From an uncultured Eubacteriales bacterium (GTDB taxonomy: Bacteria > Bacillota > Clostridia > Peptostreptococcales > Anaerovoracaceae): DNA of 64,000 nucleotides. This document shows positions 11,381 to 44,695 of the stretch, in pieces. Position 1 is the stretch's first letter, and the number at the start of each line of letters is the position of its first letter. Under the pieces are notes generated by a model that was not told where the DNA came from, did no database searches, and saw only the letters and a list, made by a program, of their open reading frames with translations. Location of the stretch: the NCBI GenBank assembly GCA_963542695.1, contig CAUTYX010000009.1, positions 3,124-67,123 of the forward strand, read 5' to 3'. The translations under genes and the position numbers were made by a program.

Positions 11381-11456
11381 GGGCGCTTAGCTCAGCTGGG
11401 AGAGCATCTGCCTTACAAGCAGGGGGTCACAGGTTCGAGCCCTGTAGCGCCCACCA
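11381..11456 (+). tRNA. tRNA-Val (anticodon TAC)
   Basis: Cloverleaf folded by hand: acceptor GGGCGCT/AGCGCCC, anticodon loop CTTACAA, GGTTCGAGCC T-arm, encoded CCA. Confidence 0.9.
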
Positions 11457-11473
11457 CATAATACTGGTACTTT

Positions 11474-11550
11474 GGTCCGGTAGTTCAGTTGGTTAGAATG
11501 CCAGCCTGTCACGCTGGAGGTCGTCGGTTCGAACCCGATCCGGATCGCCA
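11474..11550 (+). tRNA. tRNA-Asp (GTC)
   Basis: Acceptor GGTCCGG/CCGGATC, anticodon loop CTGTCAC, T-arm GGTTCGAACC, encoded CCA. Confidence 0.9.
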
Positions 11551-11592
11551 ATTTTTCAATCATCTTGGAGCAGTGATTGATGCAAACATTAT

Positions 11593-11668
11593 GCTGGCAT
11601 AGCTCAGCTGGTAGAGCAGCTGATTTGTAATCAGCAGGTCGGGGGTTCAAGTCCCTCTGCCAGCTCCA
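11593..11668 (+). tRNA. tRNA-Thr (TGT)
   Basis: Acceptor GCTGGCA/TGCCAGC, anticodon loop TTTGTAA, T-arm GGTTCAAGTCC, encoded CCA. Confidence 0.9.
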
Positions 11669-11691
11669 ATCTGTCAACTACGGTAGAATTA

Positions 11692-11776
11692 GGAGGAGTG
11701 CCCGAGTGGCTAAAGGGGGCGGACTGTAAATCCGTTGACTAAGTCTACAGTGGTTCGAATCCACTCTCCTCCACCA
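11692..11776 (+). tRNA. tRNA-Tyr (GTA), long variable arm
   Basis: Acceptor GGAGGAG/CTCCTCC, anticodon loop CTGTAAA, 85 nt with an extra arm, encoded CCA. Confidence 0.9.
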
Positions 11777-11783
11777 ATATTAT

Positions 11784-11858
11784 GCGGAAGTGGCTCAGGG
11801 GTAGAGCATCGCCTTGCCAAGGCGAGGGTCGCGAGTTCGAATCTCGTCTTCCGCTCCA
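11784..11858 (+). tRNA. tRNA-Gly (GCC)
   Basis: Acceptor GCGGAAG/CTTCCGC, anticodon loop TTGCCAA, encoded CCA. Confidence 0.9.
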
Positions 11859-11895
11859 ATCCGGGAGCAATATGTAAGTGTTGCTCCCACTATAT

Positions 11896-11969
<74 letters not shown>

Positions 11970-12012
11970 ATAGCAAAAACATCCCGAAAGGGGAGTTCTA
12001 TAATAAATGTGT

Positions 12013-12089
12013 GGGCTCATAGCTCAGTTGGATAGAGCAACGGCCTTCTAAGCCGTGTGTCCGGGGTTCGAATCCCTGTGGGCTCACCA
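12013..12089 (+). tRNA. tRNA-Arg (TCT)
   Basis: Acceptor GGGCTCA/TGGGCTC (with G-U pairs), anticodon loop CTTCTAA, encoded CCA. Confidence 0.85.
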
Positions 12090-12139
12090 TTTTTTTAGGA
12101 ATTAATTTGGTTAAGTAGACGAACTAGAAGTCATGATTT

Positions 12140-12216
12140 TGGGGTATAGCCAAGTGGTTAAGGCAACGGACTTTGACTCCGTGATTTCGCAGGTTCGAGT
12201 CCCGCTACCCCAGCCA
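12140..12216 (+). tRNA. tRNA-Gln (TTG)
   Basis: Acceptor TGGGGTA/TACCCCA, anticodon loop CTTTGAC, encoded CCA. Confidence 0.85.
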
Positions 12217-12220
12217 TTGT

Positions 12221-12296
12221 GACCCATTAGCTCAGGTGGTAGAGCACTTGACTTTTAATCAAGGTGTCCGGAGTTCGAATCTCCGATGGGTCACCA
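12221..12296 (+). tRNA. tRNA-Lys (TTT)
   Basis: Acceptor GACCCAT/ATGGGTC, anticodon loop CTTTTAA, encoded CCA. Confidence 0.9.
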
Positions 12297-12313
12297 AATT
12301 ATTTGCAGCATCC

Positions 12314-12402
<89 letters not shown>

Positions 12403-12425
12403 AGGATCATTTTGTCGTAGCTTTT

Positions 12426-12519
12426 GGAGAAGTACTCAAGAGGCTGAAGAGGACGGTTTGCTAAACCGTTAGGGTTCGTTATTAGGGCCGCATGGGTTCG
12501 AATCCCATCTTCTCCGCCA
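12426..12519 (+). tRNA. tRNA-Ser (GCT), long variable arm
   Basis: Acceptor GGAGAAG/CTTCTCC, anticodon loop TTGCTAA, 94 nt, encoded CCA. Confidence 0.9.
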
Positions 12520-12537
12520 TATTAATAAATATACCAT

Positions 12538-12613
12538 AGGGGTATAGCTCAGTTGGTAGAGCAGTGGTCTCCAAAACCACGTGCCGAGGGTTCGAGTCCT
12601 TCTGCCCCTGCCA
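12538..12613 (+). tRNA. tRNA-Trp (CCA)
   Basis: Acceptor AGGGGTA/TGCCCCT, anticodon loop CTCCAAA, encoded CCA. Confidence 0.9.
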
Positions 12614-12620
12614 ATGTTAA

Positions 12621-12697
12621 CGGGGTGTAGCGCAGCTTGGTAGCGCAACTGGTTTGGGACCAGTGGGCCGCGGGTTCAAATCCTGCCACCCCGACCA
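12621..12697 (+). tRNA. tRNA-Pro (TGG)
   Basis: Acceptor CGGGGTG/CACCCCG, anticodon loop TTTGGGA, encoded CCA. Confidence 0.9.
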
Positions 12698-12703
12698 AAT
12701 TAT

Positions 12704-12780
12704 GGACCATTAGCTCAGTTGGTTAGAGCATCCGGCTCATAACCGGCAGGTCCGGGGTTCGAGTCCCTGATGGTCCACCA
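12704..12780 (+). tRNA. tRNA with CAT anticodon, probably lysidine-type tRNA-Ile2 rather than elongator Met
   Basis: Anticodon loop CTCATAA. The 5' half GGACCATTAGCTCAGTTGGTTAGAGC closely resembles my recollection of Bacillus tRNA-Ile(CAU). The Met versus Ile2 assignment is not proven. Confidence 0.8.
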
Positions 12781-12794
12781 ATAACACGCCGTAT

Positions 12795-12870
12795 GCCCAG
12801 ATAGCTCAGTTGGTAGAGCAGGGGACTGAAAATCCCCGTGTCCTTGGTTCAATTCCGAGTCTGGGCACCA
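12795..12870 (+). tRNA. tRNA-Phe (GAA)
   Basis: Acceptor GCCCAGA/TCTGGGC, anticodon loop CTGAAAA, encoded CCA. Confidence 0.9.
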
Positions 12871-13037: not shown

Positions 13038-13190
13038 GTAATTAAAAGAAGAAGTAATCCGCTTCTCACCTTGGAGATGTAGGTCTCCGGGTTAATAGCC
13101 ATTGAAACAGTGTTATTGTAATGGGAGAGCGGGTTATCGGCCTGCTTATTTTTATGGGCAGGTACAGCAAAACTTGCCATAGCATACACA
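13038..13190 (+). promoter_or_regulatory. Structured 5' leader of infC, candidate L20-responsive leader
   Basis: The ~160-nt untranslated leader shows long-range complementarity (AATCCGCTTCTC at ~13058 with GAGAGCGGGTTA at ~13126). A hairpin CCTGC...GCAGG at 13141-13162 lies before the start. L20 leaders in this position are established in Firmicutes, but I could not run a covariance model. Confidence 0.4.
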
Positions 13191-30144: not shown

Positions 30145-30252
30145 AGAACTTTTTATGGTTTTTTCTTCATAATTTTTTTGTTTTTTCATGTAAGTTTTTG
30201 TGTTATAATTTCCGAGGCTGTTATAGAATTTGACATAAGAGTAAGAGAGGAA

Positions 30253-32049
30253 ATGAATATGAAAAAGCTACTTTTTGCCATGGGAACCATGGTGCTGGCA
30301 TGTGGGCTTTTCTTTGGAAACATACCGACAGCTAATGCTGCCGGTATTTCTATGTCCAAAGAATTGAAACCCTATGGACACATGGAGGAAAAAGACGGTA
30401 TATCCTATTACAAATACGATAATCCTTCTGTTTTGCAGCTGGATAAAAGACCGGATAGACAATCGGGATTTAAAATTTCTTCCGGCAGTATTCCCCCACA
30501 GTACGATGGGAGATATAGCCGAAATACTTCGGTGAAAAACCAAGGTACCACAGAAATTTGCTGGGCCTATGCGACTATGGCAGCCTTAGAGTCCAACATA
30601 ATTACAAAAGGTCGTGCAGGAAAAAGCTTGGATTTGTGGGAGCATCAATTGGCGTATTTTACCTACCATGGGGCAAACAACAGCGGAAAAAGCTGGTATG
30701 GAGAAGGGGATTCTTTTAAAAGCGGCAATTTGGCCTGGCATGCTTGTGGAGGAAATTATTTACAGGCGGCGGCCACCTTATCAAGAGGCTATGGCGCAAT
30801 AGGGCAACAGAATATTTCCCCCAAAGCAAACTTGTCTTCAGCTATACAAACCAAGCGATCCTATGGCATTACCGATATGGTTATGCTGCCGGATCCACAT
30901 AAAATCAATGGTCAGACCTTAGATACAACAGCAATGAAGCAAATTAAACAGAGTATTCTAAAGAATGGAGCCTGTACAGCACAACTGTATGTAGATAATT
31001 ATACGGCCTATAGAAATTATTACCATACGATAGCTGGGACAGCTAATCATGGAATTACAGTTGTAGGTTGGGATGATACTGTGCCTGCCGGTAAATTCGG
31101 ACCCAATAGTCCATCCGGATCCGGCGCATGGATTGTAAAAAACAGCTGGGGAACCAGGGCGCACCAAAATGGGTACTTTTATGTATCTTATTACTCACCT
31201 TCGATGGCAGGCTTTTGCAGCTTTATTGGAGACAAGGCAGCCAATATCAATAGTGGTTCCTATGAAACTTACCAATACGATGGTGTAGGAGTAGGCGATT
31301 CGATGCTTTCTTCATCGATACCGGTTTCGGTGGCAAATACCTTTACAGCGAGAAAAGATGCGTTGGTGAGTCACGTAGGAACATGGACCGGAGAAGGTTC
31401 CCAGAAAGTAACCATTAAAATCTATGTTGGAAGAACCACTGCCACCAGGCCGTCTTCGGGTACTACTGTGTATTCTGCAACAAAAAATATTTCCGGAGCA
31501 GGGTACCACCGCATTCCTCTCGGGAAAACAGTTGGCATTCCTAAAGGAGAAAAATTTAGTGTCGTTGTGACATCCAAAGGAAGGAGTCGGTACTTTTTCC
31601 CGGTAGAAATAAAAGTTTCTGATACCTTCAGCGGAGCCGGCCGAATCAATCTCGGCAAAATTGCCAAAGGAGAAAGCTATTATTACTTTAACGGAAAATG
31701 GCATGATATTGCCAAATCGCCGATTTTAATGCAGGATTATAAAGCGACGGTTACATCCGGCAATGCTCTTGCAAAAGCATTTACCAAGAGGGCCGGTCAC
31801 AAGTCACAACGACTGACCGGAGCAAGGAGAAAATCCATTCGACGTGGCAGGACTGTCTCTTTGAAAATACGACATCCGAGGGGAAAGGGGAGAGTCATCT
31901 ATCGTTCTTCCAACAGTCGTATCCTAAAGGTTACTTCCAAAGGGAGGGTTAAAGGCCTGCGGAAAGGACGAGCAAAAGTGTATGTAGTGGCGTTGCCTAC
32001 AGCCACTCACAAGTCAGTGAAAAAGACGATTACCATCCGTGTTCGATAA
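30253..32049 (+). CDS. Secreted papain-like (C1-family) cysteine peptidase with a C-terminal Ig-like (Big_2-type) domain
   Basis: Signal peptide MNMKKLLFAMGTMVLACGLFFGNIPTANA. Catalytic Cys context NQGTTEICWAY, His NHGITVVGWDD, Asn/Trp WIVKNSWG. A basic beta-rich tail follows (VSLKIRH...KVTSKGRVKGLRKGRAKVYVVA). Confidence 0.85.
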   Translation: MNMKKLLFAMGTMVLACGLFFGNIPTANAAGISMSKELKPYGHMEEKDGISYYKYDNPSVLQLDKRPDRQSGFKISSGSIPPQYDGRYSRNTSVKNQGTTEICWAYATMAALESNIITKGRAGKSLDLWEHQLAYFTYHGANNSGKSWYGEGDSFKSGNLAWHACGGNYLQAAATLSRGYGAIGQQNISPKANLSSAIQTKRSYGITDMVMLPDPHKINGQTLDTTAMKQIKQSILKNGACTAQLYVDNYTAYRNYYHTIAGTANHGITVVGWDDTVPAGKFGPNSPSGSGAWIVKNSWGTRAHQNGYFYVSYYSPSMAGFCSFIGDKAANINSGSYETYQYDGVGVGDSMLSSSIPVSVANTFTARKDALVSHVGTWTGEGSQKVTIKIYVGRTTATRPSSGTTVYSATKNISGAGYHRIPLGKTVGIPKGEKFSVVVTSKGRSRYFFPVEIKVSDTFSGAGRINLGKIAKGESYYYFNGKWHDIAKSPILMQDYKATVTSGNALAKAFTKRAGHKSQRLTGARRKSIRRGRTVSLKIRHPRGKGRVIYRSSNSRILKVTSKGRVKGLRKGRAKVYVVALPTATHKSVKKTITIRVR

Positions 32050-33743: not shown

Positions 33744-33752
33744 TGGTATAAT
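33744..33752 (+). promoter_or_regulatory. Extended -10 promoter element (TGgTATAAT) for the giant-gene operon
   Basis: TGGTATAAT at 33744-33752. The -35 (TGGGAT at 33724-33729) is weak. The box overlaps the first ATG of the ORF track (33751), which favours ATG 33778 as the real start. Confidence 0.4.
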
Positions 33753-33777
33753 GAGTATTATTTCGGAGGTTTGCCAT

Positions 33778-36700
33778 ATGGGAGTAATCAATAGTCTGGA
33801 CTTGCAAGAAGCGTTGGAAGCCAGAATGACCAATAGATATTTTTTAAAACGGATGAAAGTGCAAAAAAACCACATGGAATCTTTTTTGCGCGATATCGAC
33901 ATCGCAGGACATGCTGCTCGTATTGCCAGGCAAGATACCATTACCTGGAAGGGCGTAATAGACGAAATGAAAAGCGGCCTTGATCTGCTTTGCCCCGAAC
34001 CGGCAGTAGGATGGCGTCAATACTGTTATGATTATGTATTGGGATTTCTTTTTCCCGACGCAGAAATTTCACCACTGGATAGTCGCTATGATCCGGGACT
34101 TCTTTTTATCTATGAGTTTATGAGAACCATGCTGATTGTCAACAGAGACGGTCGTCCTGACGACCCTGTCTTTGATTTTGAGCTGCCACGGGAATCCGAG
34201 CTTTCAGAAGAAAATCATCCGGCCTTGGAAGAATATCGCCATTACTGTAGACTCGATAGAGACCACTATATCTACGAGTTTATGTTCCTGGGCGTGGAAC
34301 TAACCGGCTTTAACACCTTAGGCCATGTGGCCGGTGTGCATAACGTTGCTATGTTTGTGGCAAGACAGCTGGCGAAAAAGGGAGTACCGGTAGATCTGGC
34401 CTTGGTATCTACCTCGGCTGCTCTCCACGACATTGGAAAATATGGGTGTAAAAAATCAGAGGCGCGGCGAGTTCCCTACCTTCACTACTACTATACAGAT
34501 TTGTGTCTAAAATACCTTGATATGCCAATGACAGCGCATATTGCCAGTAACCATTCCACCTGGGATTTGGAACTGGAAAATCTTTCGGTGGAAAATTTAC
34601 TGCTGATTTATGCAGATTTTCGTGTAAAAAGCTCTCATGCAGAAGATGGTCGGGAAATTATCCACATCCATACTCTAGATGATTCCTTTGAGGTAATTCT
34701 CAGCAAGCTGGATAACGTGGATGATAAAAAAATGGCACGATACCAACGAGTATATGCCAAGCTCCATGACTTTGAAGATTATATGAAGAGCCTGGGGATT
34801 TCCACTGACTTACATGATTATACGGTACATCCGGTGAAGCATATTGACGATGTGATGCTATCGCCGGCAGAAACTGTTCAACGGCTAAAGTATCTGGCTA
34901 TTGAGCATAACGTGCTGGTAATGAACCACTTTGGAAACGATGCCGATTTGGCCAGTTTGCTGGAAAACGCTCGTAGTGAAAAGGCCTGGAAAAACATTCG
35001 GGCTTATCTTAGTACCTTGCAGGAGTACTTTACGTACATGACCCGTGTACAGAAGGTGATGACCATTGAATTTGCAAGGGAATTGCTGGTGCATAGAGAA
35101 GGGGATATTCGGAGAAAAGCGGCCACCTTAATTGGTCTTGTGTTGGCTTCTTACGATAAGGAATACCGAAAGGAGCTGCCGGAAGGCGTTGCGGAAAAAA
35201 TGTCCCTAGAAGGCAGTATCCGCATGTGGAATGAACATTTGCGAATCGTCATCCACACAGATCCAAAGATGACCGACCAACAAAAACGTTGGATGGGGTA
35301 TACTTTGAAAATTACGCTAAAAGCGTTACTGGATAATGTGGAGGACTTAGAAAAAAGGGAAAAGTATCTGAGCGGATTTTTGGATGTCATGCGCCAGCGG
35401 CTCAGATCAGAAGATTCGGTATTTATTGTGCTGGATACCATGCTGGAGGTTCCTTTTGAACTTTGCTCCAGAGCCGATGTAGAAAACATTGCCAGATTTT
35501 GCCGGAAGATGATGGATATGGATTCGCCGGAAATCAAAGTAGCATCTCTTCGTGTTATTAAGGATTTGACCACACAGATTAGTTATTCTCTCTTGTCTGC
35601 CAAGGCTGTAGAATACATGCAGGAAATCCTTGAGACTGATGTCTATGGCGATGAACGGGCAAGCGTGGTATATCTAAAGGCAATCAGTGCTGCTGCTCTT
35701 AGCTTTTGGGGAGAAATGTCTTCTAAATGCCGAAAGGCTTATGAGGACTTGGGAAAAGCCACCACTTCTATTTTCCGCGAAAATCTAAAGGTGGATACGC
35801 CATGGAATATTAAATCGGTAAACATCGAGTTGATGATGGATGAACTGGAACACGGAAAGATGAAAGAAGCTTTCTATATTGCTACTCACCTAGCTAACTT
35901 GCTGAAGGTTAGTGAGCGTGTTACAGTGCGTCACCAGGCCGGACAGGCGTTGACCCGTATCTTTGATATGCTCAACGATGACCAGCGCAGTGAAATTGCC
36001 ATTGAGCTGACAAAGGGACTGGAAATAGGGGAATATCAATTCTCCAAATATATTCCTGATTATTTAGGGATTATCATTGCCCGGCTGTCTTTGGAAAGCT
36101 TTAACGAAGTTATGTATGAGCTGGGGCATCTGCTGAAGAGCAATAATGATAGAGTTGTAGGGGTTACGCTTGACACCTTGTCGGTACTCCTAAATTACTA
36201 TATGGAATACAACGATTCAGAAGAGGCACAAAAGCGCTATCGGCGCCATAGAACCCGAATTATCGGCATGTTAATGAAGGGCATGGCTAATTATCACGAA
36301 CCGGTAAGCCAGGAAGCCTTTATGATTATTGGAGAAAATATATTCGGCTCTTCCCAGCTTACCTTGGAAGAAAAATTTGATATATTCCGGATTATGAACA
36401 AGAAGATGCTGACATTGATTCCTCCGGATGCTGATATTGAATTACGGTTTTACAACAATGCAGCGGCATTAAACCATATTTACCGGTTTATTTCCGATTA
36501 CCAATTCTATTTGAAAGATCCAAAGCTGCACCACAGGAAGAGAATTGCCTTCTTCCCGGGGACTTTTGATCCGTTTTCCTTAGGCCACAAAGGTATTGTA
36601 AAAACCATTCTCAGTATGGGATTCCAAGTATATTTGGCATTAGATGAATTTTCATGGTCCAAAAACACCCAGCCGAGAGAATTTAGAAAGAAAATTTTAA

Positions 36701-38577
36701 CCATGTCCTGTGCCGATGAACCGGAAGTATTTTTGCTTCCTGATGATGATCCTATTAACATCGCCAACGAAAGGGATTTGTGCAAATTAAAGACCATGAT
36801 GGCCGGCCATGATGTCTACATTGTAGTTGGAAGCGATGTGGTGGCAAACGCCAGCTCCTATAAAAAGCAGCCGGGAGAAAATACCATTCATAGCTTGAAC
36901 CACATTATCTTCCAGCGCATTACAGAAGAACATCATACGGCCACAGAAGATTCCTATGTGGAAAATAAAAAGCGCATCAATGGACACATTGTAGAGTTGA
37001 CGTTGCCGGTACAGCTGGAGGACATTAGCTCCACAAGAATCCGTGACAATATTGATAATAATAGAGATATCAGTTCTCTTATTGACCCGGTGGTACAGAA
37101 CTTTATTTACGACCATTCTCTATACATGCGTTCCCCGCAATACAAATATACTGTTCGCATGGAAGATATGAACTTTTGGGTGTCGCAGACAGACGGCATT
37201 ATGGAAACCATTAGTATTACTGATGTAACCCGGGATGATTTTGTATTAGCCGAAGCTTCTGTTCGCCGTCTTGACCTTGGCCATCTCTACGAAGAATTCC
37301 AAGATCTTCGGATTATGCAGCACATCCGTGGTTATGCTGTCGGTATGATTTTAGTTATTAAATCTATGAAGGTGGATCCTTCTTGGGATGCCGATGATCC
37401 ATACCAGTTGATTTTAACAGAGACGTTGTCAGAGGCGTTGAAGGAAGACTTTACCTATGCGGTGTACCATCCGGATCAAGAAGAGGTTAACAAGGAGTGT
37501 CTGGATGTTTTGCGAAGGCAAGGGTTCAAGGAAATTGTCATTAAGGGGAACCCAACCGGCTGCTACGCTGTAGATATGCGAAATCCGGTGACATTGTTTA
37601 CCGATATGGATACGGTGCTAAAGGAGCCTTTTACTCAAAGCAAGGCGCTGGATCAAGCGCTGTATCAGGCTCACATCAGAATGCAGGAATCATTGACCCG
37701 CATGTTCCCCAGGACTCTGGTGCTGTCCTTTGACTCGGCCATTATGCACCAAAAGCTGATTAAGAAAATTACCAGAGAAAATCAAGTACCGGTTAAACCG
37801 ACGAAGAAACGGAAGCTGGGTCCATATATTTGCGTGCCTTTTGGTCATATTTTGACGGGAAAAGCCGTTCCAAATACCGTAACAAAAGTGCTCCATACCC
37901 AGAAATTCTTTGCACCGAATTTGCAAAGCTTTAAGATCAAAGAGTATCCATTTTATGCTTCTATTGAAGATCAGGTTCGGGTTATTAAATCCTTTGATCG
38001 AAAAGCGATTTTAGTAGATGACATTCTCCACAAAGGGTACCGTTTGCAGAGTCTGTATCCTACGCTGCAAGAGGCGGAAATCCAGATAGATAAGGTTATT
38101 GTAGGACTTTTATCCGGTTCGGGAAAAGATATGATGAAGCTAAATGGCAGTGATGTGGACAGCGCATATTTTGTTCCTAACTTGAAATGCTGGTTTGTTG
38201 AGTCCCATATGTATCCGTTCATTGGAGGAGATGGGGTAGAGCGTCATACCGGAGATCCCGATGATCCGTTTACCTCTATTAACTTGATTATGCCGTACGT
38301 GTCACCTCACTTTTTAGAAGATGTGCCGCGGGAATCTCTCTATGAGTTTTCCAAAGTTTGCCTGGAGAATGCCCGGGATATTCTACGGACGCTAGAAGAG
38401 GAGTACCAGAAGGAATTTGGCAGAAAGCTGACACTGCAGCGCCTCTCGGAGACAATATTATGGCCGGTACTGACAGATGTGGGAACGTGCCTTGATTTTG
38501 ACTACACCATAGCAGCCAGTCGCTATGTAGAAGACGATATTGAACGATTGGAAAGGATGAAGGATTACTTAAAATGA
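33778..38577 (+). CDS. Giant (~1600 aa) multidomain protein: HD phosphohydrolase, HEAT-like repeats, NadD/NMNAT-type nucleotidyltransferase, an unassigned alpha/beta region, a PRTase-like domain
   Basis: One uninterrupted ORF. HD motifs are GHVAGVH (34321) and LHDIGKY (HD at 34426-34431). HEAT-like repeats include GDIRRKAATLIGLVL and VTVRHQAGQALTRIF (~35050-36450). GTFDPFSLGH lies at 36559-36588 and ISSTRIRD at 37024-37047. A PRPP-loop-like AILVDDILHKGYRL lies at 38005-38046. GGAGG at 33764-33768 precedes ATG 33778. Confidence 0.85.
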   Translation: MGVINSLDLQEALEARMTNRYFLKRMKVQKNHMESFLRDIDIAGHAARIARQDTITWKGVIDEMKSGLDLLCPEPAVGWRQYCYDYVLGFLFPDAEISPLDSRYDPGLLFIYEFMRTMLIVNRDGRPDDPVFDFELPRESELSEENHPALEEYRHYCRLDRDHYIYEFMFLGVELTGFNTLGHVAGVHNVAMFVARQLAKKGVPVDLALVSTSAALHDIGKYGCKKSEARRVPYLHYYYTDLCLKYLDMPMTAHIASNHSTWDLELENLSVENLLLIYADFRVKSSHAEDGREIIHIHTLDDSFEVILSKLDNVDDKKMARYQRVYAKLHDFEDYMKSLGISTDLHDYTVHPVKHIDDVMLSPAETVQRLKYLAIEHNVLVMNHFGNDADLASLLENARSEKAWKNIRAYLSTLQEYFTYMTRVQKVMTIEFARELLVHREGDIRRKAATLIGLVLASYDKEYRKELPEGVAEKMSLEGSIRMWNEHLRIVIHTDPKMTDQQKRWMGYTLKITLKALLDNVEDLEKREKYLSGFLDVMRQRLRSEDSVFIVLDTMLEVPFELCSRADVENIARFCRKMMDMDSPEIKVASLRVIKDLTTQISYSLLSAKAVEYMQEILETDVYGDERASVVYLKAISAAALSFWGEMSSKCRKAYEDLGKATTSIFRENLKVDTPWNIKSVNIELMMDELEHGKMKEAFYIATHLANLLKVSERVTVRHQAGQALTRIFDMLNDDQRSEIAIELTKGLEIGEYQFSKYIPDYLGIIIARLSLESFNEVMYELGHLLKSNNDRVVGVTLDTLSVLLNYYMEYNDSEEAQKRYRRHRTRIIGMLMKGMANYHEPVSQEAFMIIGENIFGSSQLTLEEKFDIFRIMNKKMLTLIPPDADIELRFYNNAAALNHIYRFISDYQFYLKDPKLHHRKRIAFFPGTFDPFSLGHKGIVKTILSMGFQVYLALDEFSWSKNTQPREFRKKILTMSCADEPEVFLLPDDDPINIANERDLCKLKTMMAGHDVYIVVGSDVVANASSYKKQPGENTIHSLNHIIFQRITEEHHTATEDSYVENKKRINGHIVELTLPVQLEDISSTRIRDNIDNNRDISSLIDPVVQNFIYDHSLYMRSPQYKYTVRMEDMNFWVSQTDGIMETISITDVTRDDFVLAEASVRRLDLGHLYEEFQDLRIMQHIRGYAVGMILVIKSMKVDPSWDADDPYQLILTETLSEALKEDFTYAVYHPDQEEVNKECLDVLRRQGFKEIVIKGNPTGCYAVDMRNPVTLFTDMDTVLKEPFTQSKALDQALYQAHIRMQESLTRMFPRTLVLSFDSAIMHQKLIKKITRENQVPVKPTKKRKLGPYICVPFGHILTGKAVPNTVTKVLHTQKFFAPNLQSFKIKEYPFYASIEDQVRVIKSFDRKAILVDDILHKGYRLQSLYPTLQEAEIQIDKVIVGLLSGSGKDMMKLNGSDVDSAYFVPNLKCWFVESHMYPFIGGDGVERHTGDPDDPFTSINLIMPYVSPHFLEDVPRESLYEFSKVCLENARDILRTLEEEYQKEFGRKLTLQRLSETILWPVLTDVGTCLDFDYTIAASRYVEDDIERLERMKDYLK

Positions 38578-39557
38578 GAAGATTAAAGGAACTGTTTCGG
38601 GATCAAGCAATCCTCCAAGAAGGTCGTGATTTCTTTATTATCAAAGGTTACCATGAACCGTTAAAACGGCGCCAGAGAGTGCATATTTTAGCCATGGGAG
38701 ACGTAGGGGGCACCCTTGCTCTTGGCATGAAGCTGCTGGGAAGTGATGTCGTGGAGAAAATCGGTATTTGCGATTTAAATGAAGATATGTGCCGGCGTTA
38801 TGAAGCAGAGTTAAATCAGATTAGCCTGCCTGACGATCACGATTGCCTGCCTTTTGTAGAAATCGTTTCGCCAGAAGATCTTTTCAAATGTGATGCCTTT
38901 ATTTTCTGTGCGACCAAGGGTGTACCTCCGGTGGAGGCGACCAAAGGGGATATGCGGATGATGCAGCTAAAAGGGAATCTGGAGTTAATCCGGTCCTTTG
39001 GAAAGCGTGCTGCAGAGGAAAATTTTGGAGGCGATTTCTTCGTAGTATCTGATCCGGTGGATCCTCTTTGCAAACAAGTGTTGCTGCAAGGTGTCCATCG
39101 AACCCGTATCAAGGGGTATGGCCTGGGGGTAATGAGTGCCCGGGCTGCATACTTTGCAAGACAACACGAGGAACTGCAGGATTATTTGTCCTATGGTCGT
39201 GCTTTTGGACCTCATGGGGAGGATCTTGTTATCTGCGATAATATTTATCTATATGATCAGCAGCGGTCTTTGAAACTGACCGAAATGACCGTGAAAGCGA
39301 ATCTTGCTATTCGGGAGATGGGTTTTAAGCCCTATATTGCACCGGCTTTTTCTTCCGGTGTGTTGTCGATTCTCTCGGATATGCGAGGGGATTGGCATTA
39401 TAGCTCTGCCTATTTTGGAAAAGACCAAACCGGTGCTTTTCTCGGTATGCATTGCCGCCGAAGAGAAGATGGCCTTGAAGTAGAAGATTTGCCGTTAGAT
39501 GACCGACTTTTTGACCGGATTGCCCGTGCCCTGGCCAATTTGGAGGAGTTGCTGTAG
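38574..39557 (+). CDS. LDH/MDH-family 2-hydroxyacid dehydrogenase-like protein
   Basis: Rossmann VHILAMGDVGGTLALGMKLLG. FFVVSDPVDPLCK compares with the LDH motif VVSNPVD. GPHGEDLV compares with the catalytic-His region GEHGDS. The start ATG overlaps the giant gene's TGA (ATGA at 38574-38577). Confidence 0.75.
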   Translation: MRRLKELFRDQAILQEGRDFFIIKGYHEPLKRRQRVHILAMGDVGGTLALGMKLLGSDVVEKIGICDLNEDMCRRYEAELNQISLPDDHDCLPFVEIVSPEDLFKCDAFIFCATKGVPPVEATKGDMRMMQLKGNLELIRSFGKRAAEENFGGDFFVVSDPVDPLCKQVLLQGVHRTRIKGYGLGVMSARAAYFARQHEELQDYLSYGRAFGPHGEDLVICDNIYLYDQQRSLKLTEMTVKANLAIREMGFKPYIAPAFSSGVLSILSDMRGDWHYSSAYFGKDQTGAFLGMHCRRREDGLEVEDLPLDDRLFDRIARALANLEELL

Positions 39558-39560
39558 AAA

Positions 39561-40628
39561 ATGGATAAAATCACTCTGATTATTCCTGAATACGACGGCA
39601 ACGATCGTTCCGGACGATTAGAAGGAGTTATTCGCCATGGTTTGTCAGGTCTTGAAATAGAGATTTTGGAGACCGTAGATCAAATGGCTATGCAGGATTT
39701 GCGGGAGCGGCGGATTCTCTTTGCAGTGGCTCTTGGAAATTCCGGTATCAATCTGGAAATGTATCGAATGATTCGCTATATCCGTGCCCACAAAAATCTC
39801 TTTGATGGTTCTGTGGCCGGTATGGTATTAAATGGAAACAGTGAGCTGTTTACCAAATCGGTAGCAAGGGATTTGGTGTTTTCTGCCAATCGTTCCGGCT
39901 GTACGTTCCCCGGAAGACCTTTAGTGGAAGGCACCGGCAGCTTGTTGAATTTTACCGTCATTGCTAAGATTCACGGTCTCGACAACTTAGGAGCCTATAG
40001 ATATTCTGTGCGGGCTTTAGTGGAGCGAGTCCTTAGCTATAAACCACCGGTTATCCGTGACCGCAAACCACGACTTCTTGCCCTCCATGCCGGCAATGCC
40101 ATGACATCCAACACCTTAGGTCTTTGGCATTTGGTTCGGGAAGGGCTGGATTGTGATGTGAAGGAAATTTCATTGCGTGACGGGCAAATTTGGGATTGTC
40201 GTGGCTGTTCTTATGAAACATGTCTGCACTTAGGCGAAAAACAAAATTGTTTTTACGGCGGTGTAATGACACAGGAGGTGTACCCGGCTATTGGAAAGTG
40301 CGATGGTTTGGTAATGGTTTGTCCCAACTACAATGATGCCATCAGTGCCAATTTATCGGCTTTTGTAAACCGATTGACGGCAATTTTTAGAGTCAGACCC
40401 TTTTACGACAAACGTGTTTTTGCGGTAATTGTGTCAGGGTATAGCGGCAGTGATATTGTTGCACAGCAGCTGATCAGTGGGCTGAACATGAACAAATCCT
40501 TTATTTTGCCATCACGGTTTGCCTTAATGGAAACGGCCAATAATCCGGGAACGGTTATGGATATCAAGGGGATTAAAGACAATGCTGCCGAATTTGCAGA
40601 TACCATAATGAAGGAATTCCAATCTTGA
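39561..40628 (+). CDS. Flavodoxin-fold NAD(P)H-dependent FMN reductase / iron-sulfur-flavoprotein-like protein (two-lobed)
   Basis: The C-terminal half LLALHAGNAMTSNTL...CDGLVMVCPNYNDAISANLSAFVNRL...FAVIVSGYSG is FMN_red-like. It has a compact Cys cluster DCRGCSYETCLHLGEKQNC. It starts 4 nt after the upstream stop. Confidence 0.65.
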   Translation: MDKITLIIPEYDGNDRSGRLEGVIRHGLSGLEIEILETVDQMAMQDLRERRILFAVALGNSGINLEMYRMIRYIRAHKNLFDGSVAGMVLNGNSELFTKSVARDLVFSANRSGCTFPGRPLVEGTGSLLNFTVIAKIHGLDNLGAYRYSVRALVERVLSYKPPVIRDRKPRLLALHAGNAMTSNTLGLWHLVREGLDCDVKEISLRDGQIWDCRGCSYETCLHLGEKQNCFYGGVMTQEVYPAIGKCDGLVMVCPNYNDAISANLSAFVNRLTAIFRVRPFYDKRVFAVIVSGYSGSDIVAQQLISGLNMNKSFILPSRFALMETANNPGTVMDIKGIKDNAAEFADTIMKEFQS

Positions 40629-40682
40629 AAATAAAAGAGGATATGGAGTATAATAAATAAGTTACGAGGAGAGGAGGGAATC

Positions 40683-42071
40683 ATGGACGAAAAAATGGAA
40701 TTTCAAGAGCTTGTGGAACGGGCTTTGAAACGAATGGAAAACAAAGAGTACATCGTCGTTCGTGATGAACTTCTTAAATGGAAAGACGCCGATGTAGCTG
40801 AAGTTATTGAAGAAGTAATGGATGAAGTCAGTTTAGACGCTGCCATTATTCTGTTTCGAATGCTTCCCAAAGATGTATCGGCAGATGTCTTTGCTTATTT
40901 ACCTACGGAAGACCAGCTGGCCATTATTCGCGGCATTACCGACCGGGAAATTTCCTATATCATTCAAGAGCTGGACTTTGATGATAAGATTGACGTTTTG
41001 GAGGAATTACCTGCCAACCTGGTAGATAAAATTTTAGAAAAAACGCCTCGTCACGAGCGGAAACAGATTAACACGTTCCTAAACTATCCGGATAACTGTG
41101 CCGGTACGTTGATGACTCCTGACTATATTAGTCTCAAGGCTAATATGACGGTAAAGGATGCCTTGCGCCATATTAAGAGAGTGGGGATGGACTCCGAGAC
41201 GGTCTACACTTGTTATGTCAAGGATGAGAGCCGTCATTTAAAGGGCATTGTGTCATTGCGCAAGCTGGTTATCAGTGATGCCAACACGCCGTTATCGGAG
41301 TTGATGATGCAGGATATTGTTTCCATCAATGTGTTGGAAGACCAAGAAGAAGCCTATGAGACTTTTAAGAAATACGGTTATTTAGCAATTCCGGTTGTAG
41401 ACAGTGAAGATCGTCTAGTGGGAATTATCACCATGGACGATATTTTAGACGTTATTGAAGAAGAAACCACAGAAGACTTTGAGAGAATGGCCGGTATCGT
41501 TGATGACTCCACCACATCCTACTTGGATATTGGTGTGTTAAAACACGTGCGAAACCGTCTTCCTTGGCTTCTTGCCTTGATGCTGATGTATATTATTACC
41601 GGTGCCATTATTTCCGGTTTTGAAGTAACACTAAAAGAAGTTATCAGCCTTTCTGTGTATATGCCGATGCTGATGGGTACCGGCGGTAATTCCGGATCGC
41701 AGTCGGCAACGTTGATTATTCGTAGCATGGCGGTGGGTGATATTGATTTAAAAGATGGTTGGCGTGTTCTTTGGAAAGAGCTGCGTGTCAGTGTCATTTT
41801 AGGAGTAGTCCTCAGTGCCGTAAACTTTGTACGGGTTATGATAGAGCAACATAGCGATCCACGATGCTTTATGATTGCATTGACTGTGTGTTTATCTACG
41901 ATTGCCGTGGTAGTGGCAGCAAAGTGTATCGGCTCCATGCTTCCCATGCTGGCTAAAAAGATTGGCGTAGACCCGGCATTGATGGCATCACCTATGATTT
42001 CATCCTTGACGGATACGGTTTCTGTTACCACCTATTTCTTGCTTGCAACAGCGCTGTTGCAGATTGGATAA
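40683..42071 (+). CDS. mgtE: Magnesium transporter MgtE
   Basis: MgtE N-domain, a CBS pair (TLMTPDYISL..., IPVVDSEDRLVGIITMDDILDV) and a TM domain with GTGGNSGSQS. Confidence 0.95.
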   Translation: MDEKMEFQELVERALKRMENKEYIVVRDELLKWKDADVAEVIEEVMDEVSLDAAIILFRMLPKDVSADVFAYLPTEDQLAIIRGITDREISYIIQELDFDDKIDVLEELPANLVDKILEKTPRHERKQINTFLNYPDNCAGTLMTPDYISLKANMTVKDALRHIKRVGMDSETVYTCYVKDESRHLKGIVSLRKLVISDANTPLSELMMQDIVSINVLEDQEEAYETFKKYGYLAIPVVDSEDRLVGIITMDDILDVIEEETTEDFERMAGIVDDSTTSYLDIGVLKHVRNRLPWLLALMLMYIITGAIISGFEVTLKEVISLSVYMPMLMGTGGNSGSQSATLIIRSMAVGDIDLKDGWRVLWKELRVSVILGVVLSAVNFVRVMIEQHSDPRCFMIALTVCLSTIAVVVAAKCIGSMLPMLAKKIGVDPALMASPMISSLTDTVSVTTYFLLATALLQIG

Positions 42072-42074
42072 GTC

Positions 42075-42926
42075 ATGGAAACCATTACAAAAAGTTATAT
42101 AGACGATATAATGATTATGGTAAAGCGGACGAAAGATACCTACAAGAATAAATGCGGTATAATAGGGGCTGTTGCCGGTTCTGTGGGAATGGCCGGAGCT
42201 GCTGTATTGTGCGGTTTGGCAGCATTACGGGCCGGTTGCGGGTTGATGCAGTACTATGTTCCGGATGGGATTCGTGATGTGTTGCAAATAGCTGTTCCGG
42301 AGGCAACTTGTCGCAGTAGAAAACCGGATGAATCCATCTTGGATTGTGATAGTTTGGCTGTGGGACCGGGGCTGGGGTTCCATAAGGAAGATCGAGAAAT
42401 ACTGGCCTATCTTTTGGAAACGTATACCGGAACCATGGTGTTTGATGCAGACGGCATTAATAATATTACCCGAATGGAATTGCAGCCTCTTGTAAAAGAT
42501 TTTTCCGGAAATTTGATTATGACCCCTCATCGAGGTGAAGCAGCACGGCTACTGGGTATTCCGTTTATTCCGGCAGGAGAGCAGGCAGCTGCAAAGGCTG
42601 CACGGCATTTGGCAGAAACCTATCATGCCACGGTGGTGTTAAAAGGCCATGAGACCATTGTTTGTGATCCGGAGGGAAATCTTGTTTGCAATAGGGAGAC
42701 GGGAAATCCCGGTATGGCAACGGGAGGTAGTGGCGATGTGTTAACAGGTCTTATTGCCTCTTTGGTCGGCCAAGGATTGCCCTATATAGACGCTGCCATT
42801 GCCGGTGTCTATATCCATGGTATGGCCGGGGATTTGGCAGCAGAAAAATTTGGTGAAAACGCTATGGTGGCCGGCGATATAGCCCGGGCGCTGGCCGACG
42901 CAATAAAAAGTATTATTGGAAGATAA
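42075..42926 (+). CDS. nnrD: ADP-dependent NAD(P)H-hydrate dehydratase (YjeF C-terminal type)
   Basis: KCGIIGAVAGSVGMAGAAVLCGLAALRAGCGL; VVLKGHETIV; ATGGSGDVLTGLIASL. Confidence 0.85.
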   Translation: METITKSYIDDIMIMVKRTKDTYKNKCGIIGAVAGSVGMAGAAVLCGLAALRAGCGLMQYYVPDGIRDVLQIAVPEATCRSRKPDESILDCDSLAVGPGLGFHKEDREILAYLLETYTGTMVFDADGINNITRMELQPLVKDFSGNLIMTPHRGEAARLLGIPFIPAGEQAAAKAARHLAETYHATVVLKGHETIVCDPEGNLVCNRETGNPGMATGGSGDVLTGLIASLVGQGLPYIDAAIAGVYIHGMAGDLAAEKFGENAMVAGDIARALADAIKSIIGR

Positions 42927-42944
42927 ATTATGGAGGATGTTTGT

Positions 42945-43763
42945 ATGGACATAAAACAGTTGGAACAGGCTGCCAATAACGGACGGATTACCGCTATCAA
43001 AGCCATCCACCAAGCCGGTTCCGGTCACCCGGGCGGCTCTCTATCGGTAATGGATATCATTACAGTTTTGTATTTTCACGAAATGAAGGTGGATCCAAAG
43101 AATCCCCATGACAAAGACAGAGACCGGTTTGTTCTTTCCAAAGGACATGCAGCACCGGCTTTGTATGCTGTGCTGGCAGAAAGAGGATTTTTCCCCAAGG
43201 AAGACGTAATGACTTTGCGTCAGGTGGGAAGCCATTTTCAGGGACATCCCAATATGAACAAAGTTCCCGGAGTAGATATGTCTACCGGATCCTTGGGGCA
43301 GGGGCTTTCTGTATGTGTAGGTATGGCGCTGGCTGCCAGACTGGACGGAAGAAGCTCACGGATATACACGGTAATGGGAGATGGCGAAATCCAAGAAGGT
43401 ATGGTTTGGGAAGCTGCCATGTCAGCCGCTCATTATAAACTGGATAATATAACTGCTTTCCTTGATTGGAATGGGTTGCAAATCGATGGTAAAAATGAAA
43501 ATGTTATGACTGTGACACCGGTGGACGAAAAGTTTAAAGGCTTTGGCTGGAATGTGCTGAAGATTGATGGTCATGACATGAAAGCCATTGTCGATGCGCT
43601 GGAAGAAGCAAAAAAATGCAAAGGCAAGCCGACCATTATCATTGCCAAAACGATAAAAGGAAAAGGTGTTTCCTTTATGGAAAACCAGGCAGGGTGGCAT
43701 GGCAAAGCCACCAACCAAGAAGAGTTTCAACAGGCAATGAAAGAACTGGGAGGTGACCTATAA
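42945..43763 (+). CDS. Transketolase, N-terminal (TPP-binding) subunit
   Basis: GSGHPGGSLS, LSKGHAAPALYA, GSLGQGLS, GDGEIQEG. Confidence 0.95.
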   Translation: MDIKQLEQAANNGRITAIKAIHQAGSGHPGGSLSVMDIITVLYFHEMKVDPKNPHDKDRDRFVLSKGHAAPALYAVLAERGFFPKEDVMTLRQVGSHFQGHPNMNKVPGVDMSTGSLGQGLSVCVGMALAARLDGRSSRIYTVMGDGEIQEGMVWEAAMSAAHYKLDNITAFLDWNGLQIDGKNENVMTVTPVDEKFKGFGWNVLKIDGHDMKAIVDALEEAKKCKGKPTIIIAKTIKGKGVSFMENQAGWHGKATNQEEFQQAMKELGGDL

Positions 43764-44695
43764 TGGCAGATAAAATTGCGACAAGACAGGCCTATGGCGA
43801 AACATTGGTAAAACTAGGTGCCACCAATGAAAATCTGGTTGTATTGGATGCCGATTTGTCCGGTTCTACCAAAACAGCGATGTTTCAAAAAGAGTACCCG
43901 GATCGTTTCTTTAACATGGGTATTTCCGAACAAGATCTCTATGGTACAGCAGCCGGACTGGCTGCCGGCGGTAAAGTCGTGTGTGCCAGCACATTTGCCA
44001 TGTTTGCCAGTGGAAGAGCCTTTGAAATCATTCGCAATTCCATTGGATATCCCCATTTGAATGTAAAGATTTGTGCGACCCATGCCGGAATCACTGTTGG
44101 GCCTGATGGTGCCAGTCATCAGACCTTTGAAGATTTGGCTCTAATGAGAACCATTCCGGGAATGACGGTTATCAATCCTTCCGATGCTGTCAGCGCAGCA
44201 AAACTGCTGGAACAGGCTGTGGCCATGGATGGTCCTTGTTATTTGCGTTTTGGTCGTGCAGCTGTTCCGGTAACATACAAGGAATCCGACGCTTTGACCA
44301 TTGGAAAAGGAAATTACCTGCGCTCCGGTAAAGATGTGACGTTGATTGCCACCGGCATTATGGTCAACGAAGCTATGGAAGCTGCTAAGATTTTAGCTGA
44401 CCGAGGAATTGATGCAGGAATTGTAGATATTCATACTATCAAGCCATTAGATGAAGACATGATTCTTCAGGTAGCGGCCGAAACAGGAGCCTTGGTTACT
44501 TGCGAAGAACATTCTATTATCGGTGGACTGGGAGAGGCGGTTGCCTCTGTAACAGCTCGCAACAATCCGGTGAAGATGGCAATGGTAGGACAGATGGATA
44601 CCTTTGGTGAATCCGGATCGCCGGCAGAGTTGATGAAAAAGTATGGCATGAATGCGGAGGCCATTGTTGCAGCAGCAGAAAAGTTGGTAAAATAA
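43763..44695 (+). CDS. Transketolase, C-terminal (pyrimidine-binding) subunit
   Basis: TRQAYGETLVKLG, FFNMGISEQDL, THAGITVGPDGASHQ. Its start overlaps the upstream stop. Confidence 0.95.
   Translation: MADKIATRQAYGETLVKLGATNENLVVLDADLSGSTKTAMFQKEYPDRFFNMGISEQDLYGTAAGLAAGGKVVCASTFAMFASGRAFEIIRNSIGYPHLNVKICATHAGITVGPDGASHQTFEDLALMRTIPGMTVINPSDAVSAAKLLEQAVAMDGPCYLRFGRAAVPVTYKESDALTIGKGNYLRSGKDVTLIATGIMVNEAMEAAKILADRGIDAGIVDIHTIKPLDEDMILQVAAETGALVTCEEHSIIGGLGEAVASVTARNNPVKMAMVGQMDTFGESGSPAELMKKYGMNAEAIVAAAEKLVK

Follow-up and report, generated by a model that had tools for sequence, protein, structure and literature searches.

A giant NadD-related protein of Clostridia and its two redox-type partners form a candidate nucleotide-centered enzyme system

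What might a bacterial protein of about 1600 residues do when it joins an HD-type hydrolase, a long helical solenoid, a relative of nicotinate-nucleotide adenylyltransferase (NadD), and a phosphoribosyltransferase (PRTase)-like domain? This question is raised by a gene on contig CAUTYX010000009.1 of an uncultured Eubacteriales bacterium of the Anaerovoracaceae (assembly GCA_963542695.1), of which we analyzed positions 3,124 to 67,123, a stretch of 64,000 nucleotides called the window below. A first-pass annotation had described the gene as a fusion of these four kinds of domain with no characterized counterpart, and had proposed that it encodes a self-contained module for the synthesis and turnover of NAD or another dinucleotide. 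The fusion is supported by profiles, structure models, and invariant motifs, with the PRTase-like part the weakest, and literature searches found neither a description of the architecture nor a characterized member. The reading that we favor, tentatively and with somewhat less than even confidence, is that the giant protein is the large subunit of a three-protein, nucleotide-centered enzyme system of Clostridia, an adenylyltransferase/hydrolase derived from NadD that would act on a phosphorylated acceptor other than nicotinate mononucleotide (NaMN). New here are the three-gene cassette formed by the giant gene and two downstream partner genes, HD-less variants that keep this cassette, and the spread of the family over at least 586 reference species genomes.

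The giant gene lies on the + strand in an open reading frame (ORF) of 1608 codons that has no internal stop in the ORF listing of the window (33751 to 38577). Its true start is likely the ATG at 33778, giving a protein of 1599 amino acids encoded by positions 33778 to 38577, because a GGAGG read directly from the sequence at 33765-33769 stands 8 nucleotides ahead of this ATG, an extended -10-like box (TGgTATAAT, 33744-33752) overlaps the earlier ATG of the ORF that opens at 33751, and the database protein P0001, which is 100% identical to the giant protein, is 1599 amino acids long. These results agree with the start and the single unbroken frame of about 1600 codons annotated initially, and the coordinates given then for four motifs (34426-34431, 36559-36588, 37024-37047, and 38005-38046) were all exact. 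The -10-like box and the ribosome-binding site together span 33744 to 33769 (+ strand); the upstream promoter is a candidate only, since a consensus scan gave no -35 partner for the box. An Rfam search upstream of the gene found no riboswitch or leader element. Residues are numbered below from 33751, and subtracting 9 gives the numbering from ATG 33778. Antisense ORFs within the gene (35151-35573 and 36787-37116, - strand) recur in 34-57 loci; these were rejected as genes and are by-products of the conserved sense frame.

Residues 926-1130 (36526 to 37140, + strand) are strongly supported as a full-length adenylyltransferase domain derived from NadD. This region contains the motifs PGTFDPFSLGH (GTFDPFSLGH, G937 to H946, is encoded by 36559-36588), GSD (D1029), and ISSTRIR (ISSTRIRD, I1092 to D1099, is encoded by 37024-37047), and a NadD-type C-terminal helix ending in ...LY. 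The Pfam model CTP_transf_like (PF01467) scored 39.7 bits (cut-off 21). TIGR00482 aligned over its whole length (positions 2-194 of 194) with 44.1 bits against an equivalog cut-off of 112.45, and NF000840 gave 38.8 bits against a cut-off of 150, compared with 240.5 and 184 bits, respectively, for the true clostridial NadD of Acetoanaerobium noterae. When an AlphaFold2 model of the C-terminal half (predicted local distance difference test (pLDDT) score 80) was compared with the PDB by Foldseek, the top 48 matches were all NadD/NMNAT (E 1e-8, template modeling (TM) score 0.77). Alignment of the family profile with Bacillus subtilis NadD by hhalign (98.8% probability, E 1e-16) covered residues 2-188 of 189 of a reference that is 100% identical to the B. 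subtilis database record. Together, the hhalign and Foldseek results strongly support the original NMNAT assignment. Compared with NadD (TIGR00482, PF01467), the domain has full-length homology, the same (S/T/H)xGH, GxD, and ISSTxxR motifs, and the C-terminal helix '...L(I/V)(D/P)xxVxxYIxxxxLY', but it is embedded in a 1600-residue protein, scores below the equivalog cut-off, and does not conserve the PPH(K/R) and GPSYTxDT loops.

The conservation of motifs, assessed in an alignment of 32 sequences, bears on what this domain might do. Residues G937, F939, D940, P941, H946, I1092, S1093, S1094, I1097, and R1098 are invariant, and the segments S943-L-G-H946 and I1092-S-S-T-x-I-R1098, as well as T938 and D1029, vary little or not at all. 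In E. coli NadD, T11, D13, and H19 lie on the ATP side, D109 is catalytic, and a His45-Arg46 loop contacts the acceptor, with His45 stacking on the pyridine ring of NaMN and Arg46 stabilizing phosphates (PMC1249556). The giant protein keeps the residues for adenylyl transfer from ATP (T938, D940, H946, D1029, and SST-x-x-R1098). The PPH(K/R) segment of NadD lies opposite a 10-residue gap in the profile alignment, with no His in the giant protein there, and the GPSYTxDT loop of NadD is also gapped in the hhalign alignment; W116-Y117 of NadD is replaced by Y1037-K, of which Y1037 is invariant. Because the ATP-side residues are kept and the pyridine-recognition loops are gapped, adenylyl transfer from ATP is plausible for this domain and NaMN is not an obvious acceptor.

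The giant gene does not stand alone. We examined the cassette in the 80 best-matching loci and three others. Among the 80, which come from several families of Clostridia, a gene for a lactate dehydrogenase (LDH)-like protein (partner 1) lies just downstream in 75 and a gene for an FMN_red protein (partner 2) is found in 68, the misses falling at contig ends. Both partners are present in every examined locus with enough flank, including those of the HD-less variants P0219 and P0230 and of Acetoanaerobium, whose giant protein is 36% identical. The initial picture of a self-contained single polypeptide is weakened by the two partner genes that always follow the giant gene and by lineages in which the HD domain has been lost or has degenerated. 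No other conserved neighbor of the giant gene was found in the 80 best loci. Genes for GDH (22 of 80 loci), MgtE (12), NAD(P)HX dehydratase (7), and transketolase (13) were rejected as cassette members because they are lineage-specific. In the window, the stop codon of the giant gene overlaps the start codon of the LDH-like gene (ATGA), and the gene for partner 2 begins 3 nucleotides past the end of that for partner 1.

Partner 1 (327 amino acids; 38574 to 39557, + strand) resembles LDH and malate dehydrogenase: Pfam Ldh_1_N was below its cut-off, the curated LDH model scored 34.5 bits against a cut-off of 339, and the best PDB match was 4q3n (E 1e-8). It shares with L-lactate and malate dehydrogenases the LDH fold, a GDVG nucleotide-binding motif, and equivalents of Arg109, Arg171, and His195, but in at least 95% of 76 sequences Met takes the place of Asp168. 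Judged by these residues, partner 1 is an LDH-like Rossmann protein whose Asp-His dyad is broken.

Partner 2 (355 amino acids; 39561 to 40628, + strand) consists of an N-terminal domain and a flavodoxin-like domain that Pfam FMN_red matches with 64.9 bits against a cut-off of 24. Four cysteines in the arrangement C-x2-C-x4-C-x8-C are conserved in at least 95% of 70 sequences and could form an Fe-S site. FMN_red and four Cys are also features of iron-sulfur flavoproteins, from which partner 2 differs by its 170-residue N-terminal domain and by the C-x2-C-x4-C-x8-C spacing. The isolated N-terminal segment (~170 residues) gave no Pfam match, and the only names for the protein in databases are 'NAD(P)H-dependent oxidoreductase' and 'flavodoxin family protein'. 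A promoter-like site before mgtE (TTGAAA-18-TATAAT, 11 of 12 consensus matches, 40625 to 40654, + strand) likely marks the 3' boundary of the cassette.

With the cassette defined, the relation of the giant protein to housekeeping NAD synthesis can be considered. A 2.63-Mb replicon of A. noterae in PLSDB carries a 36%-identical giant gene with both partners. On this replicon, the one genome in which coexistence with nadD-yqeK was examined, the giant cassette lies at 2.03 Mb and an obg-yhbY-nadD-yqeK-rsfS cluster at 1.479 Mb, the latter encoding NadD (240.5 bits) and YqeK (150.3 bits on TIGR00488) that are both above the respective cut-offs. Because canonical nadD-yqeK coexists with it in this genome, the giant cassette is an additional, paralogous system within the scope of that one genome. 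Taken with the altered PRTase-like loop, the missing pyridine-stacking His loop, and an HD domain unlike that of YqeK, this coexistence places the giant protein, a NadD paralogue, outside housekeeping NAD synthesis and classical NAD salvage. The replicon itself (NZ_CP154629.1, A. noterae 'plasmid pTPELB2', loci L083 and L084), which has only 4 features in the PLSDB annotation table, is effectively a chromosome because it carries the obg-yhbY-nadD-yqeK-rsfS cluster.

These findings weigh on the alternative that the giant protein is a regulated NadD isozyme, in which conversion of NaMN or nicotinamide mononucleotide to the corresponding dinucleotide (NaAD or NAD) would be retained and the other domains and the partners would tune NAD synthesis to redox or phosphoribosyl pyrophosphate (PRPP) status. 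Such an isozyme would fit the end-to-end alignment with NadD models, the automatic annotation of homologues as nicotinate-nucleotide adenylyltransferase in several genomes, the membership of both partners in NAD(P)H-related families, and the NAD(P)HX dehydratase gene nearby in the window. It is, however, hard to reconcile with a score of 44 bits against an equivalog cut-off of 112, with gaps at both the His45/Arg46-type PPH(K/R) loop and the SYT loop (for their roles, see PMC1249556), or with a canonical NadD of 240 bits beside the giant protein in A. noterae, and the dehydratase gene is a neighbor in just 7 of the 80 loci. We regard a NadD isozyme as quite unlikely.

An acceptor other than NaMN, which we favor, can be considered together with the hydrolase domain at the other end of the chain. 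Residues ~181-350 (34291 to 34800, + strand) are supported, by Pfam and NCBIfam profiles and by invariant ligands, as a putative HD phosphohydrolase of the binuclear, HDIG type. The six ligands H192, H226-D227 (codons at 34426-34431), H245, H268, and D289 form the binuclear-type set H, HD, H, H, D and are invariant. Pfam HD (PF01966) scored 18.1 bits with the whole protein and 22.4 bits with the isolated segment (cut-off 22), and some homologues carry a precomputed PF01966 match. When the HD segments of 13 members were searched, the HD half of NF045665 matched all 13 (best E 5e-10), and HDIG and TIGR00295 each matched 11. The HD signature reported initially is thus borne out by invariant ligands and by profile matches that are consistent among members. 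The analogy then drawn to YqeK did not hold up, since none of the 13 segments matched the YqeK model TIGR00488 at E <= 10, against 13 of 13 for the HD half of the DVU_1551 model, NF045665. The HD domain is preceded by a region (residues 10-180; 33778 to 34290, + strand) that is all-helical in the AlphaFold2 model (pLDDT ~90).

Three known systems are comparable in combining such activities. The NadD-YqeK pair, an operon in Firmicutes and a fusion in Mollicutes (NF005519), likewise joins a NadD-class transferase to an HD hydrolase with H, HD, H, H, D; the giant protein differs in its reversed order, with HD first, in the solenoid of ~550 residues between the two, and in an HD domain that lies outside the YqeK subfamily and is lost in some lineages. 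The uncharacterized DVU_1551 family NTP transferase (NCBIfam NF045665), the best profile match of the giant HD domain, has a family name that likewise couples an HD region to a nucleotidyltransferase, but the match covers just the HD portion of that profile (positions ~217-311 of 359), and no literature on this family was found. RelA/SpoT and GlnD each combine on one chain an HD hydrolase with a nucleotidyl- or pyrophosphoryl-transferase, and their C terminus is sensor-like. The giant protein is like these by functional analogy only, as its transferase is non-homologous (NadD/HIGH class versus RelA-type or pol-beta nucleotidyltransferase) and it has no TGS or ACT domain. Its individual domains all belong to known superfamilies, and the pairing of NadD with HD has its precedent in NadD-YqeK.

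The HD domain is not universal in the family. Two complete variants, P0219 (1266 amino acids, L082 8001-11801) and P0230 (1079 amino acids, L081 129-3368), lack it along with the N-terminal region. In P0139 (1607 amino acids), a natural HD-degenerate member, QNIGIY replaces HDIGKY and the NHSTWDLE block is lost. Because the HD-less variants retain both partner genes and the HD motif of P0139 is degenerate, the HD domain is an optional addition to the conserved core. Downstream of the cassette in L082 are BcrAD_BadFG/DUF2229 activase-like genes.

Whether the giant protein could also make its own acceptor depends on its C-terminal domain (residues 1296-1608; 37636 to 38574, + strand), the weakest of the domain assignments. 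It contains a PRPP-loop-like motif from A1419 on (AILVDDILHKGYRL, 38005-38046), with the loop VDD(I/L)LHKGYR, and a hood-like motif, PFIGGDGV. Pfam gave no match to this domain in the whole protein or in isolation. Searches of NCBIfam with 13 members gave matches to APRT (9 of 13), archaeal HPT (6 of 13), HGPRT, PyrR, OPRT, and XPRT, weak matches that are nearly all to type I PRTases; the APRT and HPT models, whose cut-offs are 146-200, scored ~17 bits with the giant protein (E 3e-4 for the best member). A motif scan of the loci for PRTases gave one candidate, after which an HPRT reference family was built for hhalign. Alignment with this family (P = 0.0012, probability 19.5%) pairs the giant 'VILVDDLLHKGYR ... 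PFIGGDGV' with the HPRT 'VLIVEDIIDTGLT ... FIVGYGIDY'. Foldseek found the uracil PRTase 6wn8 (E 1.7e-4, TM score 0.41), and the short variant P0219 reaches Pfam Pribosyltran at E 1e-3. Because three independent weak lines (Foldseek, NCBIfam, and hhalign) all point to type I PRTases, a divergent, purine-type, type I PRTase-like domain is supported.

The loop itself is only partly that of a PRTase. In the 32-sequence alignment, the acidic pair of (I/V)LVDD is kept (L1421, V1422, and D1423 are invariant, and D1424 is present in at least 90%) and aligns with VEDI of HPRT. Where HPRT has D-T-G-x-T, the giant family has HKGYR (invariant at H1427, K1428, G1429, and Y1430, with R1431 in at least 90%), so that the 5-phosphate-binding (S/T)-G-x-(S/T) after the acidic pair is not found in the family, the two Thr being replaced by Lys and Arg and the Asp of HPRT by His. 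The HKGYR loop appears compatible with binding of an anionic ligand and differs from the canonical catalytic loop. Thus, the domain has in common with type I PRTases (APRT/HPRT class, PF00156; 'VEDIIDTGxT ... FIVGYGIDY' in HPRT) a beta-strand, the acidic DD, a helix plus strand, and the hood-like motif, and it differs from them in the loop D-D-(I/L)-L-H-K-G-Y-R and in ~120 extra residues that include an invariant VPNTVTK loop. The motif residues singled out by the first-pass annotation are conserved, H946, R1098, and D1423 being invariant and D1424 present in at least 90%. From its PRPP-loop assignment, the acidic pair and a weak resemblance to type I PRTases stand, with HKGYR in place of TGxT in the loop.

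In the scheme proposed initially, the PRTase-like domain would make a mononucleotide from a base and PRPP, the NadD-like domain would adenylylate it to a dinucleotide cofactor or signal, perhaps a non-canonical one, and the HD domain would turn the product over. Three candidate catalytic domains with conserved core motifs are present, the acidic pair and hood-like motif align with HPRT, an invariant Y1037 at the position of W116 in NadD makes a ring-containing acceptor plausible, and the nucleotide- and flavin-binding, redox-type partners could supply the base or consume the product. However, HKGYR stands in place of the 5-phosphate-binding TGxT, the pyrophosphate (PPi)-loop position is without its usual basic residue (a manual reading of the consensus, outside the region aligned by hhalign), no PRTase profile matched at threshold, and the HD domain is missing or dead in lineages that keep all else. 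In addition, NAPRT, NAMPT, and QPRT, the PRTases that serve NAD synthesis and salvage, belong, like known pyridine PRTases, to the type II class and not to type I. With HKGYR replacing (S/T)GxT, the logic of NAD salvage that had been invoked is therefore not supported, and we consider such a dinucleotide pathway on one chain unlikely.

Between the HD and NadD-like domains, the AlphaFold2 model of the N-terminal half (pLDDT 86, predicted TM score 0.85) has ~30 helices in residues ~370-925 (34858 to 36525, + strand). Foldseek matched this model to Kap121p, the PP2A A subunit, AP2/AP3, importin-alpha, and designed armadillo proteins at E ~1e-4, and HEAT sequence profiles gave no match to the giant protein. 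The model supports a predicted right-handed HEAT/ARM-like solenoid of paired antiparallel helices, as the HEAT-like repeats noted initially had suggested. Residues 1131-1295 (37141 to 37635, + strand), after the NadD-like domain, are modeled in the order beta-beta-beta-alpha-alpha-beta-alpha-beta-alpha-beta-beta (pLDDT 85-95). NAT10 appeared at rank 49 (E 1.3e-4) in the Foldseek search with the C-terminal half, and Acetyltransf_1 was matched by 1 of 21 members at E 0.21. The acetyl-CoA motif (Q/R)xxGx(G/A) is not in the consensus of this region from 21 sequences, and the profile of this middle domain found no match in a PDB sequence search. Based on the strand and helix order, we tentatively assign a GNAT-like topology lacking a recognizable acetyl-CoA motif.

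A large alpha-solenoid, of a kind that usually binds proteins or RNA, invites a further explanation, modeled on GlnE/GlnD or on NAD-type capping and decapping of RNA: the solenoid would hold a protein (e.g. a partner) or an RNA, the NadD-like domain would nucleotidylate it, the HD domain would remove the group, and the GNAT-like and PRTase-like domains would be degenerate ligand sensors. Consistent with this possibility, the gene arrangement suggests translational coupling to the two partners, the GNAT-like and PRTase-like domains are without canonical catalytic or cofactor motifs, and the HDIG-type HD domain resembles phosphodiesterases of nucleotides and nucleic acids. On the other side, the searches revealed neither an RNA-binding domain nor an RNA element. 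The NadD/PPAT-class enzymes known to us use small phosphorylated molecules as substrates, and none is known to modify proteins. We judge modification of a macromolecule quite unlikely.

The reading that we favor, a NadD-derived adenylyltransferase/hydrolase for an acceptor other than NaMN, would work as follows. The NadD-like domain would adenylylate a phosphorylated acceptor (ATP + X-P -> ADP-X + PPi), and the HD domain would hydrolyze the adenylylated product or a related pyrophosphate-linked nucleotide, so that opposing synthesis and breakdown would reside on one chain by analogy with RelA/SpoT or GlnD. The PRTase-like domain would bind a phosphoribosyl or polyphosphate ligand, and would more likely be an allosteric sensor than make the acceptor mononucleotide from PRPP. 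The HEAT-like solenoid may dock the two partners and thereby tie the nucleotide chemistry to the redox state of NAD(H) or flavin. A more specific form of this proposal makes the cassette a machine for a not-yet-described adenylylated metabolite, be it a non-canonical cofactor of the dinucleotide type or a signal akin to an alarmone, which the NadD paralogue, with changed acceptor specificity, would make, the HD domain degrade, the PRTase-derived domain gate by sensing or supplying a phosphoribosyl or polyphosphate ligand, and the partners couple to redox; this more specific form we hold to be possible though fairly unlikely.

Several points count against the proposed mechanism. It names no substrate, and it gives the GNAT-like domain no role. 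An equivalent of Arg46 can be placed only tentatively, at R976, by a manual shift of the hhalign alignment. The HD domain is absent from P0219 and P0230 and degenerate in P0139, so hydrolysis is not essential to the core function. The PRTase-like domain falls below every curated threshold, and its catalytic competence is doubtful. Finally, gene order alone leads us to infer a physical complex with the partners.

The family is widespread. A word-indexed search found more than 100 full-length homologues (1580-1670 amino acids, 45-71% identity), and more than 190 homologues have lengths of 1450-1750 amino acids (identity 27-71%). In a scan of one genome per GTDB species, at least 586 reference species genomes contained relatives. 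The best 80 loci, all with full- or near-full-length genes, come from Anaerovoracaceae, Lachnospiraceae (Blautia, Anaerotignum, Tyzzerella, and C. fessum), Sedimentibacter, Tissierellia, and Hornefia; members in the gut include Blautia, Anaerotignum, Lentihominibacter, Hominibacterium, and Clostridium fessum. Two members are on contigs of metagenome-assembled genomes labeled Spirochaetes and Bacteroidaceae (L023 and L033), with the FMN_red gene inverted in L023; since all other matches come from Clostridia, these contigs are probably mis-binned. An exhaustive search with residues 1131-1608 returned 406 representatives at E <= 1e-3, nearly all of them giants or giant fragments, and no stand-alone C-terminal module was seen as a separate family in this representative search. 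No short paralogues of the giant protein were found in the DNA of the examined loci. Pfam searches of isolated segments found nothing for the N-terminal 170 residues, the middle alpha/beta domain, or the PRTase-like domain, and PDB sequence searches with the whole protein, with the full-length profile, and with the C-terminal, middle, and HD profiles gave only matches to the N-terminal motif of PPAT/NadD, or nothing.

Homologues are annotated as 'hypothetical' or, in several genomes, as nicotinate-nucleotide adenylyltransferase. The latter name is misleading and makes the automatic annotation unfit for metabolic reconstructions, a true NadD coexisting in the one genome checked. The conservation of the giant family in at least 586 reference species of Clostridia, including common genera of the human and animal gut, gives the role of this second, remodeled NadD wider interest. 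Its fusion to hydrolase, solenoid, and PRTase-like domains and its link to two redox-type partners suggest that this role could bring to light a new nucleotide cofactor or signal, or else a new layer of NAD/redox control in anaerobes of the gut. P0139 offers a useful natural control for the role of the HD domain.

An anti-phage defense system or mobile cassette was also considered and rejected: PADLOC gave no defense-system match for any of the three cassette proteins, no phage copy was found, and the sole 'plasmid' match is the 2.63-Mb chromosome-like replicon of A. noterae.

Other features of the window and of related loci were noted. Right after the cassette (40683-44695) lie mgtE, an NAD(P)HX dehydratase gene, and a split transketolase (N and C subunits), an arrangement that recurs only in close Anaerovoracaceae relatives (7-13 of 80 loci). 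Genes for Mg2+ transporters with CBS domains flank the cassette upstream in Acetoanaerobium (CNNM/CorC, L083 6638-7888) and downstream here (MgtE, 40683-42071) and in 12 of 80 loci; this adjacency is not general and is a weak lead. Upstream of the giant gene, 30178-32049 encodes a 623-residue C1 peptidase of the papain family that carries a lectin-like domain, matches Big_2 weakly, and has no NCBIfam assignment. A dense array of 15 tRNA genes occupies 11381-12867 and is followed by a ribosomal protein L20 leader at 13040-13159.

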